Positions 36,218 to 64,000 of a DNA stretch of 64,000 nucleotides are shown here, piece after piece (position 1 is the stretch's first letter; each line of letters starts with the position of its first letter). The position numbers and the translations under genes are program-made. The notes beneath the pieces were generated by a model. The model had not been told where the DNA came from and ran no database searches. It worked only from the letters and a program-made list of their open reading frames with translations. Source of the DNA: an uncultured Eubacteriales bacterium (lineage in GTDB: Bacteria; Acidobacteriota; Aminicenantia; Aminicenantales; Saccharicenantaceae); contig CAZGJS010000002.1 of NCBI GenBank assembly GCA_964525875.1, positions 118,577 to 182,576 on the forward strand, in the 5' to 3' direction.

Positions 36218-36262
36218 TTGCCCATCCTTTTTACACATTGGGGTTTGGCGCCATCGAACGTA

Positions 36263-46249: not shown

Positions 46250-46329
46250 GATCGCTCCTCCATCCTTCGGAATCCGAGGGACCAGTTATAGCACGGAGGA
46301 GCGCCGAAGAAAAGCGACAGGCGGGAAGG

Positions 46330-46596
46330 TCAGTCTTCGGTCTTCTCGACGACGATGGTCAGGTTCGATGCGAGCGCGGCGATCGCCCCGACGGCGGCCA
46401 GAATAGGAGCGACGATGGCGCCGACGACGCCGACGGTGAGCGGGATCTCCATGAACGTCTTGCCGTGCTCGTCCTTGAGGATGATCCGGCGGACGTTGCC
46501 CTGGTGGATGATCTCCTTGACCTTGTTGATGATCTCCCCGCCGTTCAGCCGGAATTCCTCATACCTCGTTTTGCCTTGTTTTTTTTCATCGTCCAT
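46330..46596 (-). CDS. DUF4342 family small protein
   Basis: YEEFRLNGGEIINKVKEIIHQGNVRRIILKDEHGKTFMEIPLTVGVVGAIVAPILAAVGAIAAL matches the DUF4342 pattern. Start set at the ATG 6 nt after GGAGG (MDDEKK). The tracked ORF starts at 46656. Confidence 0.55.
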   Translation of the reverse strand: MDDEKKQGKTRYEEFRLNGGEIINKVKEIIHQGNVRRIILKDEHGKTFMEIPLTVGVVGAIVAPILAAVGAIAALASNLTIVVEKTED

Positions 46597-46667
46597 GTTC
46601 ATCCTCCAAACGTCGATGAGGAGCGACCCGACCTGCGGCCGGAAACGTTCCTTCATTCAGGGATACG

Positions 46668-47192
46668 CTAAAGGTCTGGAAAAAGTTTCTTCAGGATCTC
46701 CAGGGATTCCGGGAAGAGGTCGGTGAGCGAGACGGACTGCCAATCCGCAAAGGCGAAACGCCACTCCCCTTTCCCGGTTTTATCCAGGTCGAACCGGAAA
46801 CGGTAAAACTCGCCCGTGTAGCGGATGAGCTTTCTCAGGACCTCGGCCGCTCCGTGCGAGAAGGACATCTCGCACTCGACGACGGCCCGTCCGTCCGGGC
46901 CGGGGACGTCCACGCGCACGCTCAGGAGATGGATGACGATCCCCCGGAACCTCCCCAGGTAATCACCGATGAGACGCTCCGCGTCCGCCTTGTCCCTCCC
47001 CTCGAAATCGGAATAATCCGGCGAAAAACGCTCCATCAGGGCGCCGATCTGCTTTTCTTCGGCCAGGGCCACGGACTTTTTCAGGAACTCCTTGATGCGG
47101 GCCTCTTCGGACGGCGTCCCGCACCCGCCCGGGAAAAAGCAGACCGCGGCGAGGACCAGAGCCCCGAAGGACGACTTCTTCACGCCCTTCAT
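46668..47192 (-). CDS. lipoprotein, unknown function (NTF2/SnoaL-like size)
   Basis: Internal ATG gives MKGVKKSSFGALVLAAVCFFPGGC (lipobox). 174 aa. Its start overlaps the DUF2207 stop (ATGA). The upstream 125 Arg/Gly-rich codons of the tracked ORF are an out-of-frame reading of the Gly-rich tail. Confidence 0.5.
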   Translation of the reverse strand: MKGVKKSSFGALVLAAVCFFPGGCGTPSEEARIKEFLKKSVALAEEKQIGALMERFSPDYSDFEGRDKADAERLIGDYLGRFRGIVIHLLSVRVDVPGPDGRAVVECEMSFSHGAAEVLRKLIRYTGEFYRFRFDLDKTGKGEWRFAFADWQSVSLTDLFPESLEILKKLFPDL

Positions 47193-49063: not shown

Positions 49064-49145
49064 GGCGAGTCTCCGTCTGTCATTTCCGGGACAGGTTTCT
49101 TTTTTAACTTAGGACAGGGAGAAAAGCAAGCCCGGTAGGGAGGGG

Positions 49146-49508
49146 TCAGGCCCCGCTGTCGTCCTTGGCCCCGAAAATGTGGTCGATCAACGCGAACTCG
49201 GCGTTGGGTTCCAGGCCGACGAACTGGAGCCCGGCCTCGAAGACCTCCTTGCCGTAGAGCTCCCTGGCCCAGCGGACCTCGCCGATGGCCCGTATCCGCT
49301 TGCGGGAGCGGCCCAGGGTGATGTCCAGACGGACGCGCGCGCCCATTTCGAGCGGGGCCACGGTCATGATGCGGACTCCGCCCATGGAAATATCGCGGGT
49401 GAGGGAATAGTAGACCGCCGGAGTGCCGGGGTGGATCTCGCCGGTCATCAACGAAACGACGACCTTGTTTTCCTCGACGATACGGACGTCCCGGCGCTTG
49501 TCCTTCAT
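49146..49508 (-). CDS. PilZ domain protein (c-di-GMP receptor-like)
   Basis: RRDVR (RxxxR) and DISMGG (DxSxGG) motifs in a 120-aa protein. Confidence 0.7.
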   Translation of the reverse strand: MKDKRRDVRIVEENKVVVSLMTGEIHPGTPAVYYSLTRDISMGGVRIMTVAPLEMGARVRLDITLGRSRKRIRAIGEVRWARELYGKEVFEAGLQFVGLEPNAEFALIDHIFGAKDDSGA

Positions 49509-49625
49509 GGCCGCGTGTTCGTCCCAGGAGTCAACGTCCGCAAACGGGTGCCTCCGGATACATAATGTCCCGCGTTGGGTTAGTCGGCTCGGGCCGGTCG
49601 AGAATGAATTTTGACATTTGAGAAA

Positions 49626-49655
49626 TTGACAATCCGTCGATTTTTAAGGTATGTA
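49626..49655 (+). promoter_or_regulatory. candidate sigma-70 promoter (TTGACA-17/18-TATGTA) for the Gfo/Idh/MocA gene
   Basis: Two TTGACA hexamers (49611 and 49626) in the divergent PilZ/Gfo intergenic region. The second is followed after 17-18 nt by GTATGT/TATGTA. Confidence 0.3.
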
Positions 49656-49741
49656 GAGTCCTAAAAAAAAGTGGCCCCTCTGAGGGACCATATGGGGACA
49701 TGAACTTCTTAACCGTGTCCCCGATGCGGGAGATTCAAGAC

Positions 49742-50998
49742 ATGACAAAGAAAGCACAGGTCCTCGGCGTTGGAATCGTCGGCGGCGGGTTCATCGCCCG
49801 CTTCCACATCAAGTCCTGGGTCGGCGTCCGCGACGCCGACATCTTGGGCGTCTTCGACCCCGACGCGAAACGGGCACGGGAGGCCTGCGCCCTGGCCAAG
49901 TCGCTCGGCGTCGGCGAGGCCAGGCCCTACGCCTCGATCACGGACATGGCCGCCGATCCGCGCATCGGAGCCCTCTGGATCTGCGCCCCGAACTACACGC
50001 GGGGCGAGGTCATGGAGGAGATCAGTCAGGCCGTGATCAAGGGGAAGGCCGAGCTCGTCGGCGTGGCCTGCGAGAAGCCGCTCGGCCGCAACGTCCGCGA
50101 AGCGAAGAAGATGCTCGAGCTCGCGAGGAAGGCCGGCCTCCTCGACGGCTACCTGGAGAACCAGGTCTTCTCCCCGGCCGTCGTCCGGGGCAAGGAGATC
50201 GTCTGGGCCCGCGGCGCCGCTCTCTCCGGGCCGCCCTACCTGGCCCGCGCGGCTGAGGAGCACAGCGGACCCCACATGCCCTGGTTCTGGGAAGGCACGC
50301 TCCAGGGCGGCGGCGTCCTCAACGATATGATGTGCCACTCGGTCGAAGAGGCCCGGTTCATGCTGACCCCGCCCGGCGCCCGCCGCGACGTCCTGACCCC
50401 GGTGAACGTCACCGCCTATACCAACTGCCTCAAGTGGCAGGAGCCCAGATACGCCGCCATCCTGGCCAAAAACAGCGGCGGCAAGACGGACTACCTCAAG
50501 CGGCCGTCCGAGGACTTCGCCCGGGCGCTCGTCGAATTCAAGGACAGGGCCGGCAAGATCCTCGTCGTCGAGACGACGACGAGCTGGTGCTACGTGGGAG
50601 CGGGTCTCCGCCTGAGCATGGAGCTTCTCGGTCCCGAGTACGCCCTCCAGATCAACTCGCTCGACGCCGGACTCAAGGTCTTCTTCAGCCGCGAGGTCAA
50701 GGGCAAGGCCGGCGAGGACCTCGTCGAGAAACAAAACGCCGAGATCGGGCTGATGCCCATCGTCGCCGACGAAGCCGGCGAATACGGCTACATCGCCGAG
50801 AACCGACACATGGTCCAGTCCTTCATCCGCGGCGTCCGGCCGGAGGAGAATTTCACCGACGGCGTCGCCGTCGCCGAACTTCTCATGGCCGCCTATCGGA
50901 GCGCCGAGCTGGGCAAGACCCTGGCCTTCCCGTTCAAAGGCATGGATGATTACGTCCCGCCCGTAGCCCGTGGGAAATGGAACCCGAAGTCGAAGTGA
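49742..50998 (+). CDS. Gfo/Idh/MocA family NAD(P)-dependent oxidoreductase
   Basis: N-terminal Rossmann motif KAQVLGVGIVGGGFIARFH and the conserved EKP motif (ACEKPLGRN). Start set at MTKKAQ. The tracked ORF starts at 49700. Confidence 0.8.
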   Translation: MTKKAQVLGVGIVGGGFIARFHIKSWVGVRDADILGVFDPDAKRAREACALAKSLGVGEARPYASITDMAADPRIGALWICAPNYTRGEVMEEISQAVIKGKAELVGVACEKPLGRNVREAKKMLELARKAGLLDGYLENQVFSPAVVRGKEIVWARGAALSGPPYLARAAEEHSGPHMPWFWEGTLQGGGVLNDMMCHSVEEARFMLTPPGARRDVLTPVNVTAYTNCLKWQEPRYAAILAKNSGGKTDYLKRPSEDFARALVEFKDRAGKILVVETTTSWCYVGAGLRLSMELLGPEYALQINSLDAGLKVFFSREVKGKAGEDLVEKQNAEIGLMPIVADEAGEYGYIAENRHMVQSFIRGVRPEENFTDGVAVAELLMAAYRSAELGKTLAFPFKGMDDYVPPVARGKWNPKSK

Positions 50999-51018
50999 GA
51001 ACGAACGAAGGAGAACTC

Positions 51019-52500
51019 ATGAAACGCATTCCCGCCATCCTCGCCCTCGCCGTCTTCCTCGCCGCAGCGGCCGCCCCGGCCCTCGCGGCGGGCACGCCGG
51101 CCGCACCGCAGATCCGGCACATCTCGCCCGAGCTCCAGAAAGCCGTCGCTTCGACGGACTATGCGGGCGTGCGGATCAAGAAATTCCCCTTCGCCTCGGA
51201 GGCCTGGACGTTCCGCAATTTCACCTTTGTCGAGACCCTCCGGATGCTCAAGGAGCTGGGTGTCGCCGCCGTTGAGGCCTTCCCCGGCCAGGCCCTCGCG
51301 GCCGAGCTCCCCGGCGCACGCTTCGACGAGACGATGACGGCCGAACAGGTCGCCTTCGCCAAGGAGGCCCTCAAGGAGGCCGGCGTCACGCTCTACGGCT
51401 ACGGCGTCGTCGACATCGGCAAGACCGAAGAAAGCATGCGCAAGGTCTTCGACTTCGCCCGCAAGATGGGCATCCGCGTCGTCGTCTGCGAGCCGGCCGA
51501 CGACGACTTCACCCTGCTCGAGAAGCTGGTCAAGGAATACGACATCAAAATCGCCATCCACAACCACCCTGCGCCCTCGAAGTACAACCTGCCCGAGACC
51601 GTCTTCAGCCATATCGACGGCAAGGACCCGCGCATCGGCTCCTGCGCCGACAGCGGCCACTGGATGCGGGGCCTGAACGACCCGCGCGAGGCCTTCAAGC
51701 TCCTCCAGGGCCGTATCCTCGACGTCCACCTCAAGGATCGCAGCGATTTCGGCACGGCCAAGGGCGTCGACGACGTCTCTTGGGGCGCGGGCAAGGGGAT
51801 GATCCGCGACCTCCTGGCCGAGCTGACCCTCCAGGACTACGACGGCTACCTGACTATGGAATACGAGAACGAATCCGAGGTCGGCGACCCCCGGCCCGCC
51901 TTCCGCAAGAGCATCGCCTACGTCAAGAGCGTCACCTATTTCGAGGGCTACACCCAGATCCTCCGGCGTTCCGGCGGCCGCTACGAGAAACACGGCTGGA
52001 ACCACTATGGGCCGGGCTACTTCGAGGTCGACGAGAGGACGGGCGTCCTCAAGGGCCAGAGCGGCATGGGCCTCCTCTGGTACTCGAAAAAAGTCAGGGA
52101 CTTCGTCCTCGAGTTCGATTTCAAGTGTTCGACCGAGGCCACGAACTCGGGCATCTTCCTCCGCGTGCCCTCCGTCCCCGTGAGCGACGACTATATTTAT
52201 CATTCGATCGAGATCCAGATCGACGATAAGTCGACGGGCATCCATCACACCGGGGCCGCCTACGACATCGAGGCGCCCAAGGCCCTGGCCTCGCTCCCCA
52301 CGGGCGAATGGAACCACTTCAAGATCGAATTCAAGGGCATGCGCCTCAAGATCGAGCTCAACGGCAAGCCGGTCATGGACTGGGAGGCCAGGCCGGGCGG
52401 CAAGGTCAAGGACATCTCTCCCGAGGGCTACATCGGCCTCCAGAACCACGACAGCCAGTCCCCTCCCTACTTCCGGAACGTCTTTCTTAAAGAGCTCTGA
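51019..52500 (+). CDS. secreted fusion of a xylose-isomerase-like TIM-barrel (sugar phosphate isomerase/epimerase family) and a DUF1080 (3-keto-disaccharide hydrolase-like) domain
   Basis: GAAGGAGAA RBS, then signal peptide MKRIPAILALAVFLAAAAAPALAAG. The TIM-barrel part carries IAIHNHP...EYEN metal-site-like motifs. The C-terminal about 200 aa (WNHYGPGYFEV...GYIGLQNHDS...FRNVFLKEL) fits the DUF1080 jelly-roll pattern. Confidence 0.65.
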   Translation: MKRIPAILALAVFLAAAAAPALAAGTPAAPQIRHISPELQKAVASTDYAGVRIKKFPFASEAWTFRNFTFVETLRMLKELGVAAVEAFPGQALAAELPGARFDETMTAEQVAFAKEALKEAGVTLYGYGVVDIGKTEESMRKVFDFARKMGIRVVVCEPADDDFTLLEKLVKEYDIKIAIHNHPAPSKYNLPETVFSHIDGKDPRIGSCADSGHWMRGLNDPREAFKLLQGRILDVHLKDRSDFGTAKGVDDVSWGAGKGMIRDLLAELTLQDYDGYLTMEYENESEVGDPRPAFRKSIAYVKSVTYFEGYTQILRRSGGRYEKHGWNHYGPGYFEVDERTGVLKGQSGMGLLWYSKKVRDFVLEFDFKCSTEATNSGIFLRVPSVPVSDDYIYHSIEIQIDDKSTGIHHTGAAYDIEAPKALASLPTGEWNHFKIEFKGMRLKIELNGKPVMDWEARPGGKVKDISPEGYIGLQNHDSQSPPYFRNVFLKEL

Positions 52501-52549
52501 TCGGCCATCAGGCGCCTGGGAGAGCTGTTAGATAAAAGGAGAAGTGAGC

Positions 52550-53878
52550 ATGACAGCGGTAAAGAGTACGCGCAGCAGACTGTTTATCATGATGGTGATG
52601 GAGTTCTTCATCTGGGGCGCATGGCTTCCGCTGATATTCAGCTATTTGCCGAGTCTCGGATTCACCACGACCCAGCAAGCCTGGATCCTGAATGCCTTCC
52701 CCCTCTCGGCCATCGTCGGCATGTTTTTCAGCAACCAGTTCGCGGATCGACGTTTCGCCGCCGAGAAGTTCCTGGGTTTGAGTCACCTCATCGGCGGACT
52801 CGCGATACTCGGGCTGGGGTTCACCCGCGAGTTCTGGCCCTTTTTTGTCCTGATGTTCGTGCATTGCCTTTTCTACGTCCCGACCATCTCGATCGCCAAC
52901 TCGATCGCCTTCACCCACATGAAGGACGCGCAGAAGGAGTTCGGTTTTGTCCGCATGGGGGGCACCATAGGCTGGATTCTCGCCGCCTGGCCATTCACGT
53001 TCATCCTTGTGGATTGGGCCAGAGTTAAGGCAGCGGCGCCGCATGGAGTGGTCGCTTGGCTCGGAACAGTGCTCGGCTCGGGACTCTCCGGCCAAGCGTT
53101 GAAACAAGCGACGCGCTGGACATTCATCGTAGCGGGCGTCGTCTCTCTGGGCCTGGCCGCCTACAGCCTGCTTCTCCCGCACACGCCGCCAAAGAAAAAA
53201 AAGCTGGATGCTTCCGCTGCCGAACGCTTCGCGTGGCTTGAAGCGGTGAGGTTGCTCAAGCACCCGTTCGTACTGGTCCTTTGGTTCTTGACGTTCGTCG
53301 ACGCTTTCGTTCATAACTCGTATTTCAACTGGACCGCTTCGTTCCTCGGCGCTAGGCCGGAGGCCGGAGGAGTCGGCATTCCCGGCAACTGGATCATGCC
53401 CGTCATGAGTTTGGGCCAGGTCTCGGAGATCCTGACCATGCTCGCCCTGGGAGCCGTGTTGAAAAAACTCGGCTGGCGGATGACGATGCTCATAGGCATT
53501 CTTGGGCATGCCGGCCGGTTCGCGGTATACGCCTTTTTCCCCTCCCAGCCTTGGATGATCGTGGCTATCCAGGTCTTGCATGGCATCTGCTATGCTTTCT
53601 TCTTCGCCACGGTTTACATTTTTGTGGACGCGTATTTCCCTAAGGACGTTCGTTCGAGCGCGCAGGGGCTGTTCAATGTGATGATTCTCGGCCTCGGAGT
53701 GCTGGCGGCCAACTCGCTGTGCCCGTGGCTGATACAATCGGTCTTCACCGTCAACGGCGTTACAGACTTCCGCTCGATGTTCTTGCTGCCGTGCCTGACC
53801 GCGCTGGGAGCCGCTATCTTGCTGGCTGTGGCCTTCCGGCCTCCGGCAAGGGTCGAGACGGGCCAAGGCCTATCTTAG
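52550..53878 (+). CDS. MFS transporter, nucleoside:H+ symporter (NHS/NupG-like) family
   Basis: N-terminus [23 protein letters not shown], the NHS family hallmark, with 12 TM helices. AGGAG lies 8 nt upstream of the ATG. Confidence 0.7.
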
Positions 53879-53891
53879 GGTTCACTCGGAT

Positions 53892-54107
53892 TTGCGGGCT
53901 GCGATGAAGATCCGCTACCTCGACGGCAACAGACTGTACTACGCCTTCCTCGCCGGCGGACAGGCGGTCATCCGCGTCCCAACGTTTCTTCTTGTCCGGG
54001 TCTCCGGCATCCCGATGCTCGAGAAAAAATACGCCGGGAACGCGGAGTTCCAAGCCTACGCCCGCAGGACGAACGCCTTCGTCCCCTGGTTCCCGAAAAA
54101 GCCTTAG
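53892..54107 (+). pseudogene. C-terminal fragment of an ICMT/PEMT/DUF1295-like membrane methyltransferase
   Basis: The 71-aa ORF ends ...[32 protein letters not shown]. This matches the conserved C-terminal EE..L...FG..Y..Y...VP.FIP tail of that family. It lacks the TM/SAM-binding body. Confidence 0.3.
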
Positions 54108-57100
54108 AAGCCCGGGCTGATGCTCAACTGCAGATGCCAGCCGCGGACCGGCCGGTCGATCGGGTAGACGTAGTTCAACCCGAGGATGAGGTAGCCGAAG
54201 AGGTTCGTCCTCAGGCCGATACCGGCGCTGCTGATGGGCTTCCGGTTGCCGCCCAAGAACGTGGGTTTGACGTCCTCCGGGGTCTCCCCGCCCCACCAAT
54301 AACCGGGGTTCTGGGCGTAGGCGATGCCCCAGTCGAAGAAACCGAAGAATTCGAGGGGCCAGGCGCCGAAGTAGCCCTTGCCGATGCCCAGGACACCGAG
54401 CAGGGGAAAGCGCAATTCCACGTTGCCCATTAGCATCTTGCTACCGTAGAGCCGGTTGGGATCGAAGGCGTTGTCCGGATCCTGTTGGTACACGCTCAAC
54501 TCAGCGCTGGAGAACGACTCGTAGCCGCGGACGAGGTCCCAGTAGGCGATATAAAGGGGATAGAACCGATCGTCCTCGGCGTCCTTCCCATAGCGCCCCA
54601 CGTGAAGAGCCCGGAAGGCCAGCGTGAAAGGCCTCAACGGCATGAAGTACTTACGGAAATCCGCCGAGGCCGTTATAAAGTTTATGCTTCCGATGGCCGG
54701 AGACACGGACAGGCCGATATTCTGTCCGAGGATGGGGCTCGTCGCCCCGAATATCCCGCTGTCATAATAATAGCCCGCTGTCAGGTAGCCGAAGGACATC
54801 GCCGGGGGCGTCGGCACTCTCTCTTTTTCGTAGGCGATCAGGCCGCCGCTGACCAAGGAATAGATCCGGGTGTAAAGCGTCCGTTGGAAATCCTGGATGC
54901 GGAAACCCGCGCTCAGCGAGAACCGGCTGACCTGGCTGAAGGGATAGGAGCCGAAGACGGAGAAGTCGTAGTTGATGAGCCGGTAGATATCCCGCACCTC
55001 GAAGATCGCGGGTTCTCCCGCGAATTCGTCCTCGAACAGATAGTAATAGGGATAAGGATAGACGATCCGCTGGGCCGCCGAGCCCCAGTTGAAGCGTCCT
55101 TTGTTGTTGAGGTAGGCCAGGACGCCGGAGGTGTCGACGATTTGCGACCCGGTGAACGCGGTCGTGATGATCGTCTGGGTGCCGAGCATGTCGCTCCAGA
55201 ACGCGGAGACGCCGCCTGCGGCGTAGGTCCCATAGCGGTCGGCGCCGATGCCGATGGAAGCCGGCGAAACATAGTCCAGGGCGAGCTTGGGCTTGTATGC
55301 GGAAATCGCGAAGTTCGTGTCCTTGGGCAGGCCGAAGAGCGGGTTCTTGAGGAGGCCAAGGAGTGCGCCCTCGGCTTCCGCGCGCGGCGGCAGGAGGGCC
55401 GGGTTGCGGTCGAACTGAGCCAGGAAAGCCTGCCCCTCGAGGACCTTCGCGTCGTCGATCGAATAGACCGTGTAGTAACTGTCCTGGTAGCCGGAGAAGA
55501 CGACCCGGCCGGTGTTCAGGGCGACCGAAATGGCGGGACTGAGCTCGGTGATGCCGCTGATACCCGTGTACAGGTTCGTGACCTGGAAAAGTTGGCCCGA
55601 GGCGATATCGATCCGGTAGAGGTCGGTCTTGCCGTTCTGGTCGGAGAGGAAATAGAGCCCCTTCGAGTCCGCGGTCCATTGGGGGTTGATGTTCTTGCCG
55701 TTGGGGAAGCCCAGGAGCTTCTGGATCCGGCCCGACTCGACGTCGAGCAGGGCCAGCTCGTAGTTCCCGATATCGACCCAGTCGAGGTTGGTCGAGAACC
55801 GCTCGGTAACGAAGGCGATGGTCTTGCCGTCGGGCGACCAGACCGGCTGGAGGTCGGCGAAGACGTCCCTTGTCATCTGTTTGAGGACGTTGTCTTTGAG
55901 GTCGTAGATGAAGAGGTCCGAGACCCCGCCGGTCAGGGCGGTGAAGGTGACGTAGCGGCCGTCGGGCGACCAGGCCGGGCTGAGGATCTCGGCCAGTTCG
56001 CCGAAGGGGATCTCCCGCTCGATCTTGTCCTTCTTCATGTCGAGGATGATCAAGACCGGGCGGCCCTTGGCCACGCCGCCGAAGACAAATTTCTCGCCCG
56101 TGGCGTCCCAGGAGCCGGCGGACTTGATGAATTGGATGCTCTCGAAATGGGGGTCCACGGCGGTCGAGATGATCTTCCGCCTGATCTTGCCGGCGTCGGC
56201 ATCCGCCAGGTAAAGGTCGATCGAGAACATGTCCCGGGTCGAAAGAAACACGAGTTCTTTGCCGTCGGGGCTGATGGACGGCGCGATATTGTAGGGATTG
56301 GATTCCACGCCTTTGAACAACGCCTTGGCGAACTTGTCGGGCGCCTGGGTTTTTTCGATGAGCCCGTTGTAGGCGTCCTGCATCGATTTATGCCAATCGG
56401 CCGAAAGCTGCTTCAGCTTGATGCCGAGCACGCCCTCGAGGATGATCTCGTAGTCCCCGGCGCGGCCGACGGACTTCATCATCTTGCCGATGACTTCGTC
56501 CCCCCATCGTCCGGTGATGTACGCCCACACGGCCTGGCCCCAGCGGTAGGGGAAATACTTGTAGGAGTTTCCAAGCTTGCTGATCTGCGGCAGTTCCTTG
56601 CGGCGGACGGCGTCCCGCATCCACATCGAGGTGTTCTGATCGACCGGCCCGATGGACAGATACTCGGCCATGCCCTCGATGAACCAGAGGGGAATGCGGA
56701 GGCCCATCTCGTTCCCCCGGGCCTGGTCGGAATGGCCCTGGGCCATGATATCGTACTGGAAGGCGTGGACGAGCTCGTGTCCGATGACGTGGTCGGTTTC
56801 GGAGAGCGAGGCGCCATAGGGCAGGACGATCCGGCGCTTGAACGACTCGGTGACGCCGCCGGTGCCTTCGCCCAGGATCTCGCTGATGACGGTCGTCTGC
56901 TGGAATTCCGGGCCGCTCCCGTAGAGGATGAGCGGCTGACGGCCCTTGAGCTCATGGTTGAACATCCGGGAGAGACGCGCATACCAGCGCTCGGCCATGA
57001 GGGCGGCCAGCTTGACCGTCTGTTCGTCCTGGAGATAGAAGTAGATGTCGTAGTGCCGGGTCTTCATGATCTTGAAATCGAACTTCTGGTACTGAACCTT

Positions 57101-57205
57101 GTTCCGGCCGTAATACTGGGCCTGGAGGCCCGGCGCGCCCACGCCGGCCAGGAAGCCCACGAGGCTCAACGCAATTAGGACTCTGGAAAGAGCGGTATGC
57201 CGCAT
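54104..57205 (-). CDS. multidomain surface protein: HExxH metallopeptidase (MA-clan-like) + TolB-like PD40 beta-propeller repeats + C-terminal Omp85/BamA-type beta-barrel
   Basis: Start at [21 protein letters not shown] with GAGGAGG 7 nt upstream, followed by a signal peptide. [10 protein letters not shown]...[11 protein letters not shown] (HExxH...E zincin). PD40-like repeats [56 protein letters not shown]. The C-terminal about 400 aa is a beta-strand-rich barrel ending ...[12 protein letters not shown]. The tracked ORF starts at 57295. Confidence 0.65.
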
Positions 57206-57553
57206 GGATGTCCTCCTCTGAATACGGACGTATTGTAGCGGAAAAAGACCAAAGCGGGAAATGCCCTCCCGAACGGGAGGCTTTGATGCGAGCATAGGTC
57301 GAAACTCCTTTCGACCCCTTTCCGCCGATATCTTACCGGAAACATCGGGTTTTGTCTATAACGCACTAGGATGCAGCTAAGTTGCTGGCACATGACGCCA
57401 CCCGGGCTGTGATGGGGACCATCCAGAGCCCCCGTAGCGGAGGGGGACCCATCGGCTTGCCGATGGGGGAACCGCCGGGACTGGTTCCCGGGGGGGCCGG
57501 GGGATATGGGTGGTCCCCGTCGCAGCCAAAAGGGGTGGCGTCAAAGGGGCGTG

Positions 57554-57583
57554 TTGACCGAACTGTCCGAATTCCTGTAAGAT
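57554..57583 (+). promoter_or_regulatory. candidate sigma-70 promoter TTGACC-18-TAAGAT upstream of the transporter gene
   Basis: TTGACC at 57554-57559 and TAAGAT at 57578-57583, 14 nt before the ATG at 57598. This implies a very short leader with no clear SD. Confidence 0.35.
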
Positions 57584-57597
57584 GCTGGGCGTTAGGC

Positions 57598-58905
57598 ATG
57601 ACGACACAGATCCTAATCATTCTCGTGGTCATGGTCGCCGCTTATGTCGCGGCCAAGGCCGCCAAGCTGTCCGTCGAGCTGAGCATCTTCGCCTCGGCCC
57701 TGGCCGGCGGCGTCGCCGGCGCTTTCCTCAAGACACCGCCTGTCGCCGACTTGGGGCGCCACCTCGTCGAGGGCTCTTTCACCTACCTCGACGTCATCCT
57801 CGTCTTCTTCACGGCGACGCTCTTCATGACCATCGTCAACGAATCGGGCGGGGTCGTCTACGTCGTCCGAGCGACGCTCCGCGTCTTCGGCGGCAAGAGG
57901 GCCCTCGTCCTGCTCGTCCTGATGGTCATCGTCCTCATCCCCGGCGCCCTGACCGGGGCCGGGAGCGTGTCGCTTCTCGTCGTCGGCGCCCCGGTGGCTA
58001 TGGCTCTCGGCCGCCTCGGCGTCTCCCGCAAGAAGGCGGCCGCCATCCTCTTCATCGTGGCCGGCCTGAGCGCGGCGGCGCCCCCGGTCAACATCTGGGC
58101 CATGATCCTCTGCGCGGGAACGGCCATCCCCTACGTCGGCTTCGAGTTCACCCTGGGCATCCCCGTCCTCATCCTGGGCACGTTCACCGTCCTCGTCCTT
58201 GGCTGGAAGAAGGACCCGGGCGCCGCGGCGGGACCCCTCGAACTGCCGGAGCCGCCGAAGGGCATGACCTGGTGGCGGGTCCTCCTGCCTTTCGCCGTCT
58301 TTTTCGGGCTGGTCATCGCCTACCGGGCCTGGCCCTTCGCGACGCCCATCTTCGGCCTGTCCCTCGAGTTCGCCGTCGCCGGTGCGGCAGCCCTGCTCCT
58401 CAGCCCGAAAAAGATCGCTTTCCTGACGCTGGCCCGGGACACGCTGAAAAGGCTTCTGCCCCTTCTCGCCACCATGGTCGTCGTCGGCATGCTCCAGCAG
58501 GTCATGACCGTGACCGGCGTCCGCGGCCTCGTGTCGTTCGCCGTCATCTCGACGCCCCTCGTCCTCCTCTTCTTTCTTCTTCCGGTCATCATCCCCTTCT
58601 CCGAAGGGATCCTGACCTATGGCGCGGCGGCGATCATCGGCATTCCGCTGATCTGGTTTCTGGATTCGATCGGTTTTCACGCGACCGTCGTCATCGCCGG
58701 GCTGAGCCTCCTCTGGCCCCTCGGCGACGGCCTGCCGCCGACGGCCCTCATCGGCCGGCTGAGCAACATGGTTTCCGGGTACGACGGCTCCTATAAGGAC
58801 TTTCTTAAGGCGACCTGGCTCCCCTGGCTGGTCATCACCGCCGCGGGCATGGCCATGATCATCTTCAGTTCGAAACTGGCCTTCCTGGTCAAATGGAGCA
58901 TGTAG
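57598..58905 (+). CDS. polytopic membrane transporter, ion-transporter-superfamily-like (DctM/YfcC/NhaC-type), family unresolved
   Basis: About 435 aa from the internal ATG (MTTQILIILVVMV). 11-13 hydrophobic helices and Gly/Ala-rich re-entrant-like segments (GAGSVSLLVVGAPVAMALG). The upstream 72 codons of the tracked ORF are GC-rich non-coding sequence. Confidence 0.6.
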   Translation: MTTQILIILVVMVAAYVAAKAAKLSVELSIFASALAGGVAGAFLKTPPVADLGRHLVEGSFTYLDVILVFFTATLFMTIVNESGGVVYVVRATLRVFGGKRALVLLVLMVIVLIPGALTGAGSVSLLVVGAPVAMALGRLGVSRKKAAAILFIVAGLSAAAPPVNIWAMILCAGTAIPYVGFEFTLGIPVLILGTFTVLVLGWKKDPGAAAGPLELPEPPKGMTWWRVLLPFAVFFGLVIAYRAWPFATPIFGLSLEFAVAGAAALLLSPKKIAFLTLARDTLKRLLPLLATMVVVGMLQQVMTVTGVRGLVSFAVISTPLVLLFFLLPVIIPFSEGILTYGAAAIIGIPLIWFLDSIGFHATVVIAGLSLLWPLGDGLPPTALIGRLSNMVSGYDGSYKDFLKATWLPWLVITAAGMAMIIFSSKLAFLVKWSM

Positions 58906-58924
58906 CGAGGCGAAGGACGCACCG

Positions 58925-59074
58925 ATGATCATGATCGCCTATTACGTCATCACGGCCTTCATCCTCTTCCTCACTGGCTGGAACTTCGTCCGGGAGAAGA
59001 AGAGCCGTGACGACCTCGTCCTCTACATCCTGGTCATGATTCCCCTCCTCCTGAGGCTCCTGAGGATGAAATGA
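58925..59074 (+). CDS. 49-aa single-TM micro-protein (not in ORF track)
   Basis: MIMIAYYVITAFILFLTGWNFVREKKSRDDLVLYILVMIPLLLRLLRMK. Its stop overlaps the ATG of the next gene (ATGA). It lies 20 nt after the transporter stop. Confidence 0.35.
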   Translation: MIMIAYYVITAFILFLTGWNFVREKKSRDDLVLYILVMIPLLLRLLRMK

Positions 59075-60249
59075 AAGACGACGGCATGAAACGGGAAGTT
59101 CTGTTCAAAGCCATTCTGGCAGGCGCTTTCCTCGGCCTCGTGCTCTGGGGCGGCCTGCCGCTTTTCCGTCACAGGCATTACGATGTCCCCATCATCAAAG
59201 GCCCTGGCGTTACCGCGGTCCTCCGCCTGAGCGATTTCTCTCCGAGGCTCAAGGGGACAGAGGGCGACACGTATGTTTTCGTCCTTCAGGGAAAAGAGCC
59301 CGGCGGCAAGGCCCTGATCATGGGCAACACCCACTCGAACGAACCCGAGGGCATGCTCACCGCCCTCGTCTTCATCGAGAACGCCGTCGTCGATAAAGGA
59401 ACTCTCTACGTCATCCCCTTCTTCAACAACAGCGGCAGCCGCAACACGCGCCCGGGCGACGGCTACCCGCTTTACTTCGACGTCCCGACGGACTGGGGCT
59501 CGCGGCGGTTCCGTTACGGCAACCGCGACGCCTCCCCGCTCGACCAGTGGCCCGACCCGGACGCCTACATCCACTACCCTGACCGGCAGCTCCTCTCGTT
59601 CATCGACGTCCGCAACACCAACCGGACCTGGCCGGGACGGCCGGACGGCCCCCTCATGGAACGGGTGACCTACGGGGCCATGGAGCTCATGCGCCGCGAC
59701 AAGATCGACGTGGCTGTCGACATCCACGGCGCGGAGACGATGTTCCCGGTGACGAACTGCATCGTCGCCCCGGAAAGATCGGTCAAGATCGCGACCCTGG
59801 CCTCAATGACCGTCAAGGCCATGGAGGGGTTCGAGAACCACGTCGAGCCGTCGCCGGCCGGTTTCCGCGGCCTCTCCCACCGGGAGATCGGTGACCACTC
59901 GGACGCCATGCCCTTCCTTCTCGAGGCTCCCATCCCCTTCCTCGACCAGCCCACCGGGCCGAAGACGACGAAGTTCCTTCTCGATGGCAAGGACCCGTTC
60001 CTGCTCAGCCTGTCCAGGAAGAAAAAACTCTTCGTCCCCTATGACGAGAGCGGCTGGCCGCTCGAAAAAAGGGTCGGCCAGAACCTGTCGGTGACCCTCG
60101 AGATATTCCGTCAATTTTCCAAGAAGACGGCTGACCGGCCCATCGTCCTCCGGGGCGTCCCCCGCTACGCCGACGTCGTCAAGAACGGCGTCGGCCGCTA
60201 TCTCGGCGACCCGGCTAAGGCCGCGGCGGGCACCGTCGTCATGAATTGA
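59071..60249 (+). CDS. membrane-anchored succinylglutamate desuccinylase/aspartoacylase (AstE/AspA) family zinc hydrolase
   Basis: N-terminal TM (VLFKAILAGAFLGLVLWGGL), then LIMGNTHSNEPEG (H-x-x-E zinc site of the AstE/AspA/M14-like fold) and a later DIHGAE motif. Confidence 0.65.
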   Translation: MKDDGMKREVLFKAILAGAFLGLVLWGGLPLFRHRHYDVPIIKGPGVTAVLRLSDFSPRLKGTEGDTYVFVLQGKEPGGKALIMGNTHSNEPEGMLTALVFIENAVVDKGTLYVIPFFNNSGSRNTRPGDGYPLYFDVPTDWGSRRFRYGNRDASPLDQWPDPDAYIHYPDRQLLSFIDVRNTNRTWPGRPDGPLMERVTYGAMELMRRDKIDVAVDIHGAETMFPVTNCIVAPERSVKIATLASMTVKAMEGFENHVEPSPAGFRGLSHREIGDHSDAMPFLLEAPIPFLDQPTGPKTTKFLLDGKDPFLLSLSRKKKLFVPYDESGWPLEKRVGQNLSVTLEIFRQFSKKTADRPIVLRGVPRYADVVKNGVGRYLGDPAKAAAGTVVMN

Positions 60250-60283
60250 GCGGGATCGGCTGCTCTCCAAGCCGCCCCGAGAG

Positions 60284-62017
60284 GTGTTCAAGATGTTCGA
60301 CAAGAAAAGGATTCACGGCGTCCTGGCCCTCGCCGCCGTCCTCTTGTTCGCAGGCGGGCTGAGCCTGGACCTCGGCCATAACCCGGCTTCCGGCCCCGCC
60401 CTCGACAAGACGGCGGAAGCCTGCACGGTCATCATGGTCGGCCGCGAGGCCTCGACCGACGGCTCGGTCATGAGCACGCACGCCGCCGACTGCGGCGTCT
60501 GTGACTTCACCTGGAGGCATGTCCCGGCCGCCGCCCATAAGCCGGGCTCCACGAGAAAGCTCTACCACATCGACCAGATCCGGACCTGGCCGCCCTCCGA
60601 GGGTCTCAAGTGGGACATGGTCCTCAAGGACTTCACCGGAGTCGAGATCCCGCAGGTGTCGCACACCTACGGCTACCACCACTCCGTCTTCGGCTACATG
60701 AATGACCAGCAGCTGGCCATTGCCGAATCGACCATCAGCAACGTCCGCAAGCTCTCAAACCCCACGCCGACCCCTGCTCTGAACATCTCCATGCTGACCC
60801 TCCTGGCCATGGAACGGGGCCGGACGGCCCGCGAGGCCATCACGCTCATGGGCGCGCTGGCCGAGGAGTACGGTTATGGCTACCACGACGGCGGCGAGAT
60901 GCTGGCCGTCTCCGATGCGAAGGAGATCTGGGTTTTCGAGATCATGCCGGTCGGCCCGCTGTGGACGCCTAAGTCGGGAAAGCCAGGGGCGGTCTGGGCG
61001 GCCCAACGGGTTCCGGACGACCACGTCTCCGTCTGTCCTAACGAGGCGCGCATCGGGGAAATGGACCTCGCCAATTCAGACTATTTCATGTCCTCGGCGC
61101 ACGTTGTGACTTACGCCGTCGAGGCCGGGCTCTACGACCCGAAAATTGGTAAACCCTTCAGCTGGAAGAAAGCGTATTCGCCTGCCGAGGGGAGTGCGCT
61201 CAGCACCGAGGGCCGCCGCTCCCGCATGTGGCGTTTCTTCGACCTCGTCGCCCCCTCCCAGAAGTTCAAGGTCGAATTGCCCAACATGGACTTCCCCTTC
61301 TCCGTCAAACCCGACGCCAAGCTCTCGGTCCGGGACGTCATGGCCCTGACCCGCGATAAATCCCAGGGCTCGGTTTTCGATCCCGTCCGGGGGCTCCGAG
61401 GCGGCCCCTTCAAGAACCCGAACTATTACAAGGGCACGCGCCTCATCAGCGTCCCCAACGTCGAGTATACGACCCTGACCCAGTGCCGCTCGTGGCTTCC
61501 CGACCCGGTCGGAGGCATCGTCTGGGTCGCCCTCGGCGCCCAGGACACGTCCTGCTACGTCCCGTTCTACGCCGGGGCGACCGAGATCCCCAAGTCCTTC
61601 GGCATCGGCGACCACTTCGTCCTCAACCGGGACTCCGCCCGCTGGGCCTTCGACTACGTCGACTTCCACGTCCAGGTCGCCTACAACGCCGCCGTCGAGG
61701 ACGTCAAGGCGGCCCGGAAAACCTGGGAGGACGGCGCTCTCGACCGCGTCCCCGAGATCGACGCCCGGGCGGCCGAGCTCTACAAGAAGAATCCCAAGGA
61801 GGCCGTCCGCTTTCTCACCGACTTCAGCCTGAGCAACGCGACGAGCGTGGTCGGCGCCTGGTGGAAGCTCGGCGACGACCTCTGGGTGAAATACAACCAC
61901 CTCGGCCTCTACGACGCCGAGAAGCGGTCGAGCGGCCGCATCCCCACGGCCAACCCGGAGTGGTGGAACAGGGCCGTCAAGGCCTTCGACGTCCTGACGG
62001 AACCGGAAAAGAAGTAG
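60284..62017 (+). CDS. peptidase C69 family dipeptidase (Ntn-hydrolase, secreted), copy 1
   Basis: Signal peptide then AEACTVIMVGREASTDGSVM (nucleophile Cys exposed after processing). 577 aa. Shares about 75% identity with the next gene. Confidence 0.8.
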   Translation: MFKMFDKKRIHGVLALAAVLLFAGGLSLDLGHNPASGPALDKTAEACTVIMVGREASTDGSVMSTHAADCGVCDFTWRHVPAAAHKPGSTRKLYHIDQIRTWPPSEGLKWDMVLKDFTGVEIPQVSHTYGYHHSVFGYMNDQQLAIAESTISNVRKLSNPTPTPALNISMLTLLAMERGRTAREAITLMGALAEEYGYGYHDGGEMLAVSDAKEIWVFEIMPVGPLWTPKSGKPGAVWAAQRVPDDHVSVCPNEARIGEMDLANSDYFMSSAHVVTYAVEAGLYDPKIGKPFSWKKAYSPAEGSALSTEGRRSRMWRFFDLVAPSQKFKVELPNMDFPFSVKPDAKLSVRDVMALTRDKSQGSVFDPVRGLRGGPFKNPNYYKGTRLISVPNVEYTTLTQCRSWLPDPVGGIVWVALGAQDTSCYVPFYAGATEIPKSFGIGDHFVLNRDSARWAFDYVDFHVQVAYNAAVEDVKAARKTWEDGALDRVPEIDARAAELYKKNPKEAVRFLTDFSLSNATSVVGAWWKLGDDLWVKYNHLGLYDAEKRSSGRIPTANPEWWNRAVKAFDVLTEPEKK

Positions 62018-62045
62018 CGGTATTCTTGAAAGATAGGAGGGCATC

Positions 62046-63770
62046 ATGAACAGGAAACGACTCATCGCCGTCGGCGGGACACTCGTCCTGGCCGTCGTCC
62101 TGGCCGGCCTCATTTCGACGGCCGGGAGCCAGGCCCTGGCCGGCCTCGACGACATCGTCCTCGCCGGCGAAGCGTGCACGTCCATCCTCGTCGGCAAGGA
62201 CGCCTCGACGGACGGCTCCGTCATGACGACGCACACCTGCGACTGCGGCACGTGCGACTGGACCTGGCGTCACGTCCCGGCCGCCGACCACAAGCCCGGC
62301 TCGACCCGAAAGATCTACCATATCTCGCAGTACAAGACCTGGCCGCCGTCGGAGGGCCTCAAGTGGGACCTCTACAAGAAGGACTTCGCCGGTCTCGAGA
62401 TCCCCGAAGTCCCCCGAACCTACGCCTACCACCACGGCATGTTCGGCTACATGAACGAGAAGCAGGTTTCGATCGGCGAATCGACCATCGGCTGTCAGCG
62501 CAAGATGCAAAACCCAACGCCGGCGGCCAAGCTCGACCTGACCATGCTGACGCTGCTGGGGATGGAACGAGGCGGCACGGCTCGCGAGGCCATCCAGGTC
62601 ATGGGCTCTCTCGCCGAAAAGTACGGCTACGGCTTCCATGACGACGGCGAGATGCTGGCCGTGGCCGATACGAAGGAGGCCTGGATCTTTGAGATCATGC
62701 CCGCGGGACCCCTGTGGACCCCGGAGAGCGGCAAGCCCGGCGCCGTCTGGTGCGCCCAGCGCGTCCCCGACGATCACGTCAGCGTCTGCCCCAACGAATC
62801 GCGCATCGGCGAGATCGACCTCGACAACAAGGACTTCTTCATGGCCTCGTCGAATGTCGTCTCGCTGGCCGTCGACATGGGCTACTACGACCCGAAGGGC
62901 GGCAAGCCCTTCAACTGGAAGAGGGCCTACTCCCCGGTCGAGGGCAGCGCGGCCGGCACCAACGGCCGGATCCAGAGGCTGTGGCGCTTCTTCGATATCG
63001 TCGCCCCGTCCAAGAAGTTCAAGCCCGAGACGCCTAACATGGACCTGCCGTTCTCGGTGAAACCCGACGCCAAGGTTTCCGTCCAGGACGTCATGAACAT
63101 GACCCGGGACCGGAGTTACGGGACGCCCTTCGACCCGGTCATGGGCATCCGCGGCGGGCCGTTCAAGAACCCCAACTACTACCGCGGGACGCGGGTCATC
63201 GACCACGGCCTGGCCGAGTACTCAACGGTCACCCAAAGCAGGACCGGCCTGCCCGACGCGATCGGCGGCATCGTCTGGATCGCCTTCGGCTCCCAGGACA
63301 CATCCTGCTACATGCCGCTTTACGCCGGAATGACCGAGATGCCCAAGTCCTTCATGGTCGGAGACCATTGGACCTTCAGTCGGGATTCGGTCCGCTGGGC
63401 CTTCGACTACACCGATTTCCACGTCCAGGTCGCCTACTCCGAGGCCATCAAGGACGTCATGGCGGCCCAGGCCAAATACGAAGGGGAAACGATCGCCCGC
63501 ATCCCGGAGATCGACCAGCAGGCCCTGGCCCTCTACAAAAAGAAACCGGCCAAGGCAGCCGAGTTCCTGACAGGGTTCGCGCTCAATAACGTCACGACGG
63601 TCGTCAACGCCTGGTGGAAGCTCGGCGACGACCTCCTCGTCAAGTACAACCGGCTCTACCTCTACAACGCCGAGAAACGGGGCTTCTCCCGCGGCCAGCC
63701 GGCGACTCCCGACTGGTGGAAGAAGGCCGTTCGGGCGTTCGACATTCTCATGGAACCCGAGAAGAAGTAG
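62046..63770 (+). CDS. peptidase C69 family dipeptidase, copy 2 (tandem paralog)
   Basis: AGGAGG RBS, signal peptide, then GEACTSILVGKDASTDGSVM. Colinear with copy 1 over the full length. Confidence 0.8.
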   Translation: MNRKRLIAVGGTLVLAVVLAGLISTAGSQALAGLDDIVLAGEACTSILVGKDASTDGSVMTTHTCDCGTCDWTWRHVPAADHKPGSTRKIYHISQYKTWPPSEGLKWDLYKKDFAGLEIPEVPRTYAYHHGMFGYMNEKQVSIGESTIGCQRKMQNPTPAAKLDLTMLTLLGMERGGTAREAIQVMGSLAEKYGYGFHDDGEMLAVADTKEAWIFEIMPAGPLWTPESGKPGAVWCAQRVPDDHVSVCPNESRIGEIDLDNKDFFMASSNVVSLAVDMGYYDPKGGKPFNWKRAYSPVEGSAAGTNGRIQRLWRFFDIVAPSKKFKPETPNMDLPFSVKPDAKVSVQDVMNMTRDRSYGTPFDPVMGIRGGPFKNPNYYRGTRVIDHGLAEYSTVTQSRTGLPDAIGGIVWIAFGSQDTSCYMPLYAGMTEMPKSFMVGDHWTFSRDSVRWAFDYTDFHVQVAYSEAIKDVMAAQAKYEGETIARIPEIDQQALALYKKKPAKAAEFLTGFALNNVTTVVNAWWKLGDDLLVKYNRLYLYNAEKRGFSRGQPATPDWWKKAVRAFDILMEPEKK

Positions 63771-63797: not shown

Positions 63798-64000
63798 ATG
63801 AAAACGAAAACCCTATTGGGCCTGGCCGCGGGCGCGGTCCTCGGCTTGTCCCTGCTCATCGCCGCACAAACGATCCCCAAGGCCGGCCTGCCCGTGCTGA
63901 CAACCTCGGCCGGCCAGAGCACGGACGTCACGACCCTCAACATCGTCCTCGACGAAGCGGCCATCGCCTACGACTACTGCGATGTCCCGACCTCCGAGAT
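63798..64000 (+). CDS. secreted hypothetical protein, 3'-truncated by window edge
   Basis: GGAAGGAG RBS, ATG, then signal peptide MKTKTLLGLAAGAVLGLSLLIAAQT. Only 67 codons are visible. Confidence 0.4.
   Translation, partial: MKTKTLLGLAAGAVLGLSLLIAAQTIPKAGLPVLTTSAGQSTDVTTLNIVLDEAAIAYDYCDVPTSE

Follow-up and report, generated by a model that had tools for sequence, protein, structure and literature searches.

A four-gene module of Aminicenantes and other phyla that may couple periplasmic hydrolysis to uptake by a DctM-like permease

This study concerns a gene array at the end of a 64,000-nucleotide (nt) stretch of contig CAZGJS010000002.1, which is called the window throughout and which matches metagenome-assembled genomes (MAGs) of Candidatus Aminicenantes (OP8, Acidobacteriota). 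The array encodes a permease, a micro-protein of 49 amino acids (aa), a membrane-anchored hydrolase, two enzymes of peptidase family C69 (C69a and C69b) and a protein with the domain DUF6305. We propose, with a probability of roughly 60%, that the locus is an uptake system coupled to periplasmic hydrolysis and built on a four-gene core, that the micro-protein is a subunit of the permease, and that glutamate is the likeliest product. A full-text literature search found no paper mentioning DUF6305 and none linking PgsB/PgsC with transporters of the TRAP type (tripartite ATP-independent periplasmic). The four-gene module is previously undescribed and its micro-protein family has no Pfam or NCBIfam model.

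Results

A four-gene core with accessory C69 enzymes

The genes of the array, with their positions in the window, are as follows.

57598-58905, + strand: permease, 435 aa; its open reading frame (ORF) opens at 57382 and the conserved ATG is at 57598
58925-59074, + strand: micro-ORF, 49 aa
59071-60249, + strand: hydrolase, 392 aa; an alternative conserved start lies at 59086
60284-62017, + strand: C69a; the probable start is the ATG at 60293 chosen by gene callers, which gives 574 aa
62046-63770, + strand: C69b, a tandem paralogue of C69a
63798-64000, + strand: 5' part (67 codons) of the DUF6305 gene, which runs off the window end

An earlier analysis made from the letters of the window alone (the sequence-only reading) had described the first five of these genes as a likely single transcription unit, and all five ORFs are found on the + strand as claimed. 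They are separated by 19, -4, 34 and 28 nt. The proposed end of the unit at 63770 did not survive, because the DUF6305 gene continues the array from 63798. It begins 27 nt past the C69b stop on the same strand, with a GGAAGGAG motif upstream of its start, and is the sixth gene. A terminator scan of the operon found terminator-like sites inside the array at chance frequency only. In the window's clade the six genes appear, from this layout, to share transcription from one conserved promoter.

The same genes were compared in 51 Aminicenantes genome loci that encode the hydrolase (56-95% identity to the enzyme of the window). The order permease-micro-hydrolase-C69-DUF6305, with one to three C69 copies, occurs alongside the order C69-DUF6305-permease-micro-hydrolase and other variants, in which DUF6305 stands behind the hydrolase either directly or after one C69 gene. 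A DUF6305 gene is present in nearly every related locus. More distant relatives of the permease (28-49% identity) come from a Bacteroidota MAG, Thermotogota MAGs, an Aminicenantes paralogue and metagenome bins (loci L053-L066). All but one of these loci with enough flanking sequence contain DUF6305, the permease, an ORF of 47-54 aa and an AstE/AspA-like hydrolase. A metagenome scan, which used a different permease subfamily, gave 80 loci; their dominant order is GGT-DUF6305-permease-micro-hydrolase, in which GGT stands for gamma-glutamyltransferase. Together, these gene orders indicate that the conserved unit comprises DUF6305, permease, micro-protein and hydrolase and extends across at least three phyla, and that the C69 pair is a lineage-specific accessory to this core.

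The 67 DUF6305 codons in the window match their orthologues almost residue for residue. A complete orthologue (L002:10700-11350) scores 134.4 bits against the Pfam model PF19823 (cut-off 25) and thus belongs to the DUF6305 family. The protein is secreted; it has a leader sequence and a mature length of about 190 aa. A profile search found no relative in the PDB. DUF6305 is the only conserved secreted partner in the module that is not an enzyme.

The micro-ORF is a gene

The sequence-only reading had asked for the small ORF to be sought at the same position in related genomes, and we found it kept wherever the flanking genes are. By tblastn it is present at full length between permease and hydrolase in 48 Aminicenantes loci and in the window; this count omits L011 (cut by the contig end), L050 (frameshifted assembly) and L051 (region absent). 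All 49 sequences, with identities down to 39% at the aa level, are free of indels and internal stops, and the stop codon varies among TGA, TAA and TAG at a fixed position. Nucleotide diversity at codon positions 1, 2 and 3 is 17.7, 8.2 and 25.4, and the median dN/dS is 0.27 in frame as opposed to 0.85 and 2.1 in the two other frames. A Shine-Dalgarno-like motif, GAAGGA, lies 8 nt upstream of the start in the window. In distant relatives GGAGG occurs 6-9 nt before an ATG that is 1-4 codons upstream of the aligned start, which gives proteins of 50-53 aa. This pattern of substitution indicates that the 49-codon ORF is a real gene under purifying selection. The idea that the ORF is not translated, and that an RNA or DNA element between the genes is what is conserved, is hardly credible. 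Nothing beyond the small size of the ORF favors it, an Rfam scan gave nothing, and it is contradicted by the frame-specific substitutions, by the intact reading frames with their changing stop codons, by the Shine-Dalgarno motifs and by a fusion at the protein level that is described below.

The expectation that standard annotation would miss the gene turned out to be wrong. The micro-protein matches 136 database proteins, several of which are named 'hypothetical protein' at NCBI and JGI, and the 49-aa gene has been called on a Logan contig with an identical permease. The predicted single transmembrane segment also had to be revised, since the protein has two hydrophobic helices, which are linked by the basic loop REKKSRDD. 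Its C-terminal part contains the conserved motif (I/V)P-x-x-LR-L-L-x-x-K; no variation is seen at Y6 and R44 and almost none at W19, P40 and L43. A profile search against the PDB, as well as searches of Pfam and NCBIfam, revealed no relative; a Pfam scan of 16 micro-proteins returned noise only.

The micro-protein belongs with the permease

In the window the stop codon of the micro-ORF overlaps the start of the hydrolase gene (ATGA), as had been noticed before. Among relatives this overlap is found in only 16 of the 33 that were scored. Most of the others start the hydrolase at a Met equivalent to 59086, with gaps of up to 61 nt. The sequence-only reading had left open whether the micro-protein is an accessory of the transporter or of the hydrolase, and two observations decide in favor of the transporter. 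The first is the synteny in Thermotogota. Here (L061 and L062) the order is hydrolase-GGT-DUF6305-hydrolase-permease-micro; the start of the micro gene overlaps the stop of the permease gene by 4 nt and the next gene lies on the opposite strand.

The other observation is that the two proteins are naturally fused. P0272 is a protein of 497 aa in which a Pro-rich linker, about 27 aa long, joins the micro-domain to the C-terminus of the permease. It was found on four contigs, of which two loci from separate sequencing runs (L059 and L060) are considered here. These loci have no separate micro-ORF, and the hydrolase starts 7 nt after the fusion gene. The tail of P0272 scores 22-24 bits over positions 4-48 of a micro-protein hidden Markov model (HMM) in a search run without the null2 composition correction; hmmsearch with default settings did not report it. 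None of 2000 composition-preserving shuffles reached this score (mean 3.1, maximum 14.1). Two further fused variants (L067 and L071) are 82-88% identical to P0272 and keep the fusion in frame, and the fusion, which characterizes one clade, is therefore inherited and not an assembly error. The P0288 cluster, the P0303 cluster and P0344 have an extra C-terminal helix, the similarity of which to the micro-protein is too weak to call.

For the small ORFs behind another five permease genes, a micro-protein HMM built without these ORFs gives scores of 21-46 bits. In the 80 metagenome loci the element is present at all 78 permease genes that could be assessed, 76 times as a separate ORF and twice fused. 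The micro gene is thus always directly 3' of the permease gene, even where the hydrolase gene sits elsewhere; the exception is L063. Because of the Thermotogota synteny and the natural fusions we assign the micro-protein to the permease, of which it is probably, on these genomic grounds, a stoichiometric membrane subunit. It could instead help the membrane-anchored hydrolase, to which it is translationally coupled in the window, in assembly, anchoring or regulation, as the ATGA overlap in the window and in about half of the relatives and the position of the micro gene between permease and hydrolase at most loci might suggest. We consider this very improbable. The overlap with the hydrolase gene is not conserved, the micro gene of Thermotogota stays behind the permease and overlaps its stop while the hydrolase genes are upstream, and all three fusions join the permease. 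Homology of the micro-protein to CapE/PgsE of the Bacillus poly-gamma-glutamate (PGA) operons also seems unlikely, since it is the permease, and not pgsBC, that the micro gene accompanies.

The permease is DctM-like

The permease of the window has no significant sequence match in Pfam, NCBIfam or the PDB, even when a profile of 20 sequences is used; its score on the Pfam model DctM (PF06808) is 7.6 bits (cut-off 23.8). Family members at 28-37% identity to it reach 19-40 bits on DctM over the full length, one of them above the cut-off, and PF06808 is assigned to several relatives in precomputed annotation. When 1.84 billion cluster representatives were searched exhaustively with phmmer, only 324 relatives were found at E <= 0.001, and the family is therefore small.

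Two AlphaFold2 (AF2) models were analyzed. One represents the window permease and is based on an alignment of homologues that are 84-100% identical (predicted local distance difference test, pLDDT, 70); the other has the natural fusion P0272 as its target and uses a diverse alignment (pLDDT 88.6, predicted TM-score, pTM, 0.85). In Foldseek searches TRAP M subunits rank first with both models. The top matches of the P0272 model are IseQM (9pym, E 4.8e-9) and SiaM (7qha_B, TM 0.71), followed by ArsB, AbgT and DASS carriers. The TM values for TRAP M structures range from 0.63 to 0.71, with ArsB and DASS close behind, and all 42 PDB matches at E <= 0.001 belong to the ion-transporter superfamily. 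The model of the window permease, with its pLDDT of 70, returns the same list. By structural similarity the permease has the fold of this superfamily, with a scaffold domain, a transport domain and two helical hairpins.

The Foldseek ranking and the DctM scores of the distant members therefore point to an elevator carrier of the ion-transporter superfamily that is nearest to DctM. The earlier reading had called for an HMM comparison with DctM, YfcC, NhaC and AbgT. YfcC, NhaC and AbgT were rejected, since no such Pfam matches were obtained and AbgT appears only as a distant fold match. Judged from models and profiles, the permease is a divergent DctM-like (TRAP large-subunit-like) secondary transporter of the predicted elevator type. 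No DctQ-family gene occurs in the window region or in the gene list of any related locus, and the gene lists of all loci are also devoid of DctP and TAXI binding proteins.

The hydrolase and the C69 enzymes

The hydrolase has a single hydrophobic segment, at residues 14-32 near the N-terminus, which fits a signal anchor with a catalytic domain that faces the periplasm. The only Pfam match of the window protein is AstE_AspA_cat (PF24827), with 19.5 bits (cut-off 25); its orthologues in L053 and L055 reach 36.2 and 28.3 bits. No match to the PghP family was detectable. The PDB sequence matches are DoeB (6twl) and 3na6. The HxxE, RN-x-NR-x-x-PG (carboxylate-binding) and D-x-H motifs align with these structures, as seen in the pairs GNTHSNEPEG-GANHGDEYEG, IDVRNTNRTWPGRPDG-IDRGNLNRSFPGRPDG and VDIHG-VDFHS. 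H88, E91, R181, N182, N184, R185, H219 and E285 are invariant in 19 orthologues, so that the zinc ligands and the Arg/Asn carboxylate-binding motif of the AstE/AspA family are all in place. We infer that E285 is the catalytic Glu; this assignment does not come from the alignment. The anchor segment and the DoeB alignment bear out the earlier proposal of a membrane-anchored zinc hydrolase of AstE/AspA type (carboxypeptidase fold), with predicted catalytic activity.

C69a and C69b match the Pfam model Peptidase_C69 (PF03577) with E values of 1.7e-57 and 1.1e-58 (195.7 and 199.6 bits, cut-off 23). On the NCBIfam equivalog NF033678 they score 177-184 bits, below the cut-off of 250, and they are therefore divergent members. 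In both proteins a hydrophobic leader precedes a Cys whose counterpart, in the alignment with the dipeptidase 5iau, is the N-terminal nucleophile. The segment ACTSILVGK of C69b aligns with the nucleophile segment of that structure, as does ACTSILVGKDASTDGS with SCTSILVGKKASIDGS at the 5iau N-terminus. Both proteins thus combine the family profile with a nucleophile Cys that the leader would expose at the N-terminus, and by sequence they are secreted cysteine N-terminal nucleophile (Ntn) hydrolases of family C69, or 'dipeptidases'. Their secretion had been anticipated, and the signal-like N-terminal segments agree with it. The identity of about 75% given earlier for the pair holds for the DNA (73.5%) but not for the proteins (65%).

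The number of C69 copies differs among close relatives, with three in L013, L023 and L048 and one in L021, L032, L034 and L042. Furthermore, the entire permease-micro-hydrolase unit is duplicated in tandem in two metagenome lineages (L066 and L139). The varying C69 copies and the duplicated modules suggest an ongoing diversification of the substrate range.

Gamma-glutamyl genes next to the module

GGT, detected with TIGR00066 above its cut-off, accompanies the module in L053, L061, L063, L065 and L066 and in 60 of the 80 metagenome loci. C69 enzymes take the accessory position in the window's clade, in L055 and in L058. The module has genes for PgsB (TIGR04012), PgsC (TIGR04011) and TIGR04332, each scoring above its cut-off, as neighbors in L031, L037, L053-L056 and L058, and pgs genes also adjoin it in 4 of the 80 metagenome loci. 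L031 and L037 belong to the orthologous group of the window itself. In L053 and L054 the genes form one array on the same strand, apparently in the order pgsB-pgsC-TIGR04332-DUF6305-GGT-permease-micro-hydrolase.

A Bacteroidota MAG (L055:3046-4320) encodes a protein of 424 aa that combines PgsC with the 'poly-gamma-glutamate system protein' TIGR04332. This fusion implies that both act together and that TIGR04332 is membrane-associated. An ORF of 625 aa in the window (34361-36238, - strand) shares 28% identity with the module GGT of L053 across about 590 aa (tblastn E 7e-53).

Promoter and upstream flank

The region upstream of the permease gene contains these further features.

57554-57583, + strand: candidate sigma-70-like promoter, TTGACC, 18-nt spacer, TAAGAT
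57358-57330, - strand: divergent promoter-like site of the gene for a 1063-aa protein, TAGACA-17-TAAGAT, with hexamers that are invariant in relatives
54104-57295, - strand: gene for the divergent 1063-aa protein, which has Pfam and NCBIfam matches

The promoter at 57554 had been predicted before and is confirmed here as a conserved sequence feature. By itself the pattern is weak, as a pattern scan found 2 sites against 0.8 expected. In an alignment of 11 Aminicenantes relatives, TTGACC and TAAGAT are both invariant; the spacer and the flanks vary and the upstream DNA contains large indels. The site TTGACC-18-TAAGAT is also present in L002. The -10 element stops 14 nt short of the permease ATG, without a Shine-Dalgarno motif in between. 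The leader of the permease cistron is therefore only about 7 nt long, and to judge from this spacing the cistron would be translated from a near-leaderless mRNA. Relatives keep the short distance, which is 2 nt shorter in three of them. The downstream cistrons, unlike the permease, have clear Shine-Dalgarno motifs. An Rfam scan of 57100-59200 for leaders and riboswitches gave chance-level eukaryotic matches only.

Between the divergent promoters, at 57400-57545, are about 150 nt of G+C-rich DNA that contain palindromic runs (for example gggggaccc...gggtcccc-like arms). The ten closest relatives lack this stretch or have other sequence in its place, and it is thus a lineage-specific insertion; it accounts for the long spurious extension of the permease ORF from 57382.

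The 1063-aa protein has a zincin-like N-terminal region with HExxH, beta-propeller repeats of the PD40/TolB type and a BamA/Omp85-like C-terminus. Synteny of its gene with the module is seen at most loci of the window's clade and extends to Saccharicenans-like loci. The protein could act as a protease at the surface and feed the uptake system. Further upstream (44120-53878) are genes for a GH20 hexosaminidase, a DUF2207 protein, a GFO/IDH/MocA oxidoreductase, a fusion of a xylose-isomerase-like protein with a 3-keto-disaccharide hydrolase, and a nucleoside:H+ symporter. These have unrelated carbohydrate and nucleoside functions, and we therefore place the boundary of the module in the divergent promoter region.

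Discussion

The data are consistent with a system in which the outward-facing hydrolase and the secreted Ntn-hydrolases (C69 here, GGT mostly elsewhere) would set an acidic amino acid free in the periplasm. The likeliest product would be glutamate, derived from gamma-glutamyl peptides, from PGA or from peptides, and the permease would import it. DUF6305 may be the periplasmic partner of the permease. The micro-protein probably enlarges the static scaffold domain by one or two helices and in this way may partly replace the four-helix DctQ. Its N-terminus would be outside, with the basic loop and the C-terminus inside; this topology is suggested by the charge distribution and by the Pro-rich, uncharged linker of the fusion. 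In TRAP transporters the scaffold is extended by DctQ, which allows the carrier to function as a monomer (PMC9971032). The role of a minimal DctQ is suggested because the DctM-like family lacks the Q subunit, which canonical TRAP permeases need.

Several points weigh against this proposal. All functional assignments made here are computational and come from sequence and models. Neither sequence nor profile similarity links the micro-protein with DctQ or with a chain of solved structure, and the distant permease of L063, the sole exception seen, has no micro-ORF. In the AF2 model of P0272 the micro-domain has a pLDDT of 43-58, so that its placement is of low confidence and gives no docking geometry. 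Other members of the ion-transporter superfamily work as homodimers without a small subunit, and the fold therefore does not require a scaffold role for the micro-protein. As for the substrate, the gamma-glutamyl context is strongest outside the window's own clade. A tblastn search found none of pgsB, pgsC and TIGR04332 in the 64-kb window, and its only GGT homologue lies about 20 kb from the locus. The neighbors in the window, namely C69 dipeptidases and a protease-like outer-membrane protein, would suit the degradation of alpha-peptides.

The latter points lead to an alternative that is close to the sequence-only reading, in which peptides are processed at the envelope and the products imported. 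The C69 and M14-like enzymes would then scavenge alpha-peptides in a generic manner, the transporter would import amino acids or dipeptides and the micro-protein would be an accessory of either. Aminicenantes genomes are described as rich in peptidases that degrade oligopeptides, including M14 and C69 enzymes, and the organisms as peptide scavengers (PMC4897734), which favors this alternative. So does the genomic neighborhood in the window's clade, where the core adjoins two or three secreted C69 enzymes and the divergent HExxH/PD40/Omp85-like protein and where, in the window, no PGA or GGT genes adjoin the module. We nevertheless regard generic scavenging as doubtful. In most other lineages the core is paired with GGT and not with C69 (60 of the 80 metagenome loci, together with L053, L061, L065 and L066), and even in the orthologous group of the window it adjoins PGA synthetase genes (L031 and L037). 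Furthermore, the characterized AstE/AspA enzymes are N-acyl-amino-acid amidohydrolases, which cleave N-acyl-Glu and N-acyl-Asp, and are not known as general carboxypeptidases; N-succinyl-glutamate resembles gamma-Glu-Glu. Generic peptide scavenging is thus probably too broad a description. The GGT and PGA synthetase neighbors found elsewhere are better explained by a turnover of gamma-glutamyl compounds or glutamate, a substrate that we infer from this context.

The same neighbors could mean that the module serves the biosynthesis, export or anchoring of PGA, for example by processing or attaching the polymer in the periplasm of diderms. The common array with pgsB-pgsC-TIGR04332 in L053 and L054 would fit this, and there is a precedent in CapD, an enzyme of the GGT family that anchors PGA in Bacillus anthracis. 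However, most module loci have no pgs genes within 6 kb, these being found in 4 of the 80 metagenome loci and in none of the window's clade, and an elevator-type carrier of small solutes is ill suited for the export of a polymer. Adjacency does not imply synthesis either, given that in Bacillus the degradative genes pgdS and capD adjoin the synthesis genes. A biosynthetic role is therefore improbable.

A hydrolysis-coupled uptake system of the kind proposed here differs from the systems to which its parts are related. The resemblance to TRAP transporters (DctPQM/SiaPQM, TC 2.A.56) lies in the large membrane protein with its predicted DctM-type elevator fold, relatives of which reach the Pfam DctM threshold, and in the small membrane partner (separate, sometimes fused) and the secreted partner encoded alongside, which recall the Q/M fusions and the P components. 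Unlike TRAP systems, the module lacks both DctQ (about 160 aa in four helices) and a DctP or TAXI protein. The gene for its small partner, a protein of 47-54 aa, lies 3' of the permease gene, and the fusion is to the C-terminus, whereas the canonical Q is encoded 5' and fused to the N-terminus. Its secreted partner is DUF6305, it includes a dedicated membrane-anchored hydrolase, and the window permease reaches only 7.6 bits on Pfam DctM. According to sequences and models, the best description of the system is that of a DctM-like carrier in which both the small subunit and the secreted partner are different ones and to which a hydrolase is dedicated.

The micro-protein can also be compared with KdpF of KdpFABC and AcrZ of AcrAB-TolC. 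Like these it is a hydrophobic protein of less than 55 aa that is encoded in a transporter operon and is inferred to be integral to the complex (PMC12648545). It is unrelated to them in sequence, has two helices and has a secondary elevator carrier as its partner; it is conserved across phyla, and the natural fusion proves the pairing. Its role may be a stabilizing, scaffolding or regulatory one.

AbgT with AbgAB offers a parallel to the module as a whole, since a permease of the ion-transporter superfamily is coupled genetically to metallo-amidohydrolases that act on a glutamate conjugate, with AbgAB freeing glutamate from an N-acyl glutamate; the structures of the AbgT-family proteins YdaH and MtrF are among the fold matches of the permease. 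The hydrolase of the module is, however, of the AstE/AspA and not the M20 type and faces the periplasm, so that cleavage would precede import, and the micro-protein and DUF6305 have no Abg counterpart. With the enzymes of PGA turnover (GGT/CapD, PgdS, PghP/PghL) the module shares the genetic link to pgsB, pgsC, TIGR04332 and GGT. PghP and PghL are zinc enzymes with a carboxypeptidase fold and His/Glu/His ligands, and PghL illustrates that such enzymes can cut gamma-glutamyl bonds (PMC6506827). The predicted hydrolase differs in that it has no PghP-family match, and the window's clade differs in that pgs and GGT genes are not adjacent.

A bolder version of our proposal, to which we hold only tentatively, is that the module represents an unrecognized, TRAP-related class of multicomponent secondary uptake systems. 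The micro-protein would be a minimal functional replacement for DctQ, DUF6305 would be a new periplasmic protein for substrate binding or delivery, and the hydrolase would generate glutamate from gamma-glutamyl polymers or peptides at the transporter, with the result that PGA or gamma-glutamyl compounds are recycled in several phyla. If this is true, it would define a 'hydrolase-coupled' transporter for the recycling of these compounds.

The analysis gives a testable role to a micro-protein family that spans phyla and has no Pfam entry, and it provides the first functional context for DUF6305. It indicates that neither DctQ nor DctP has to accompany a DctM-like elevator permease, which can have a partner of 49 aa that is in some cases naturally fused to it. 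This bears on the reason for which TRAP carriers depend on an additional scaffold and on the minimal size that a helper of the scaffold can have. The module also points to a route for the turnover of gamma-glutamyl compounds, PGA or glutamate in uncultivated anaerobes (Aminicenantes, Thermotogota and Bacteroidota), and such a route would matter for models of organic-nitrogen recycling in sediments and digesters.

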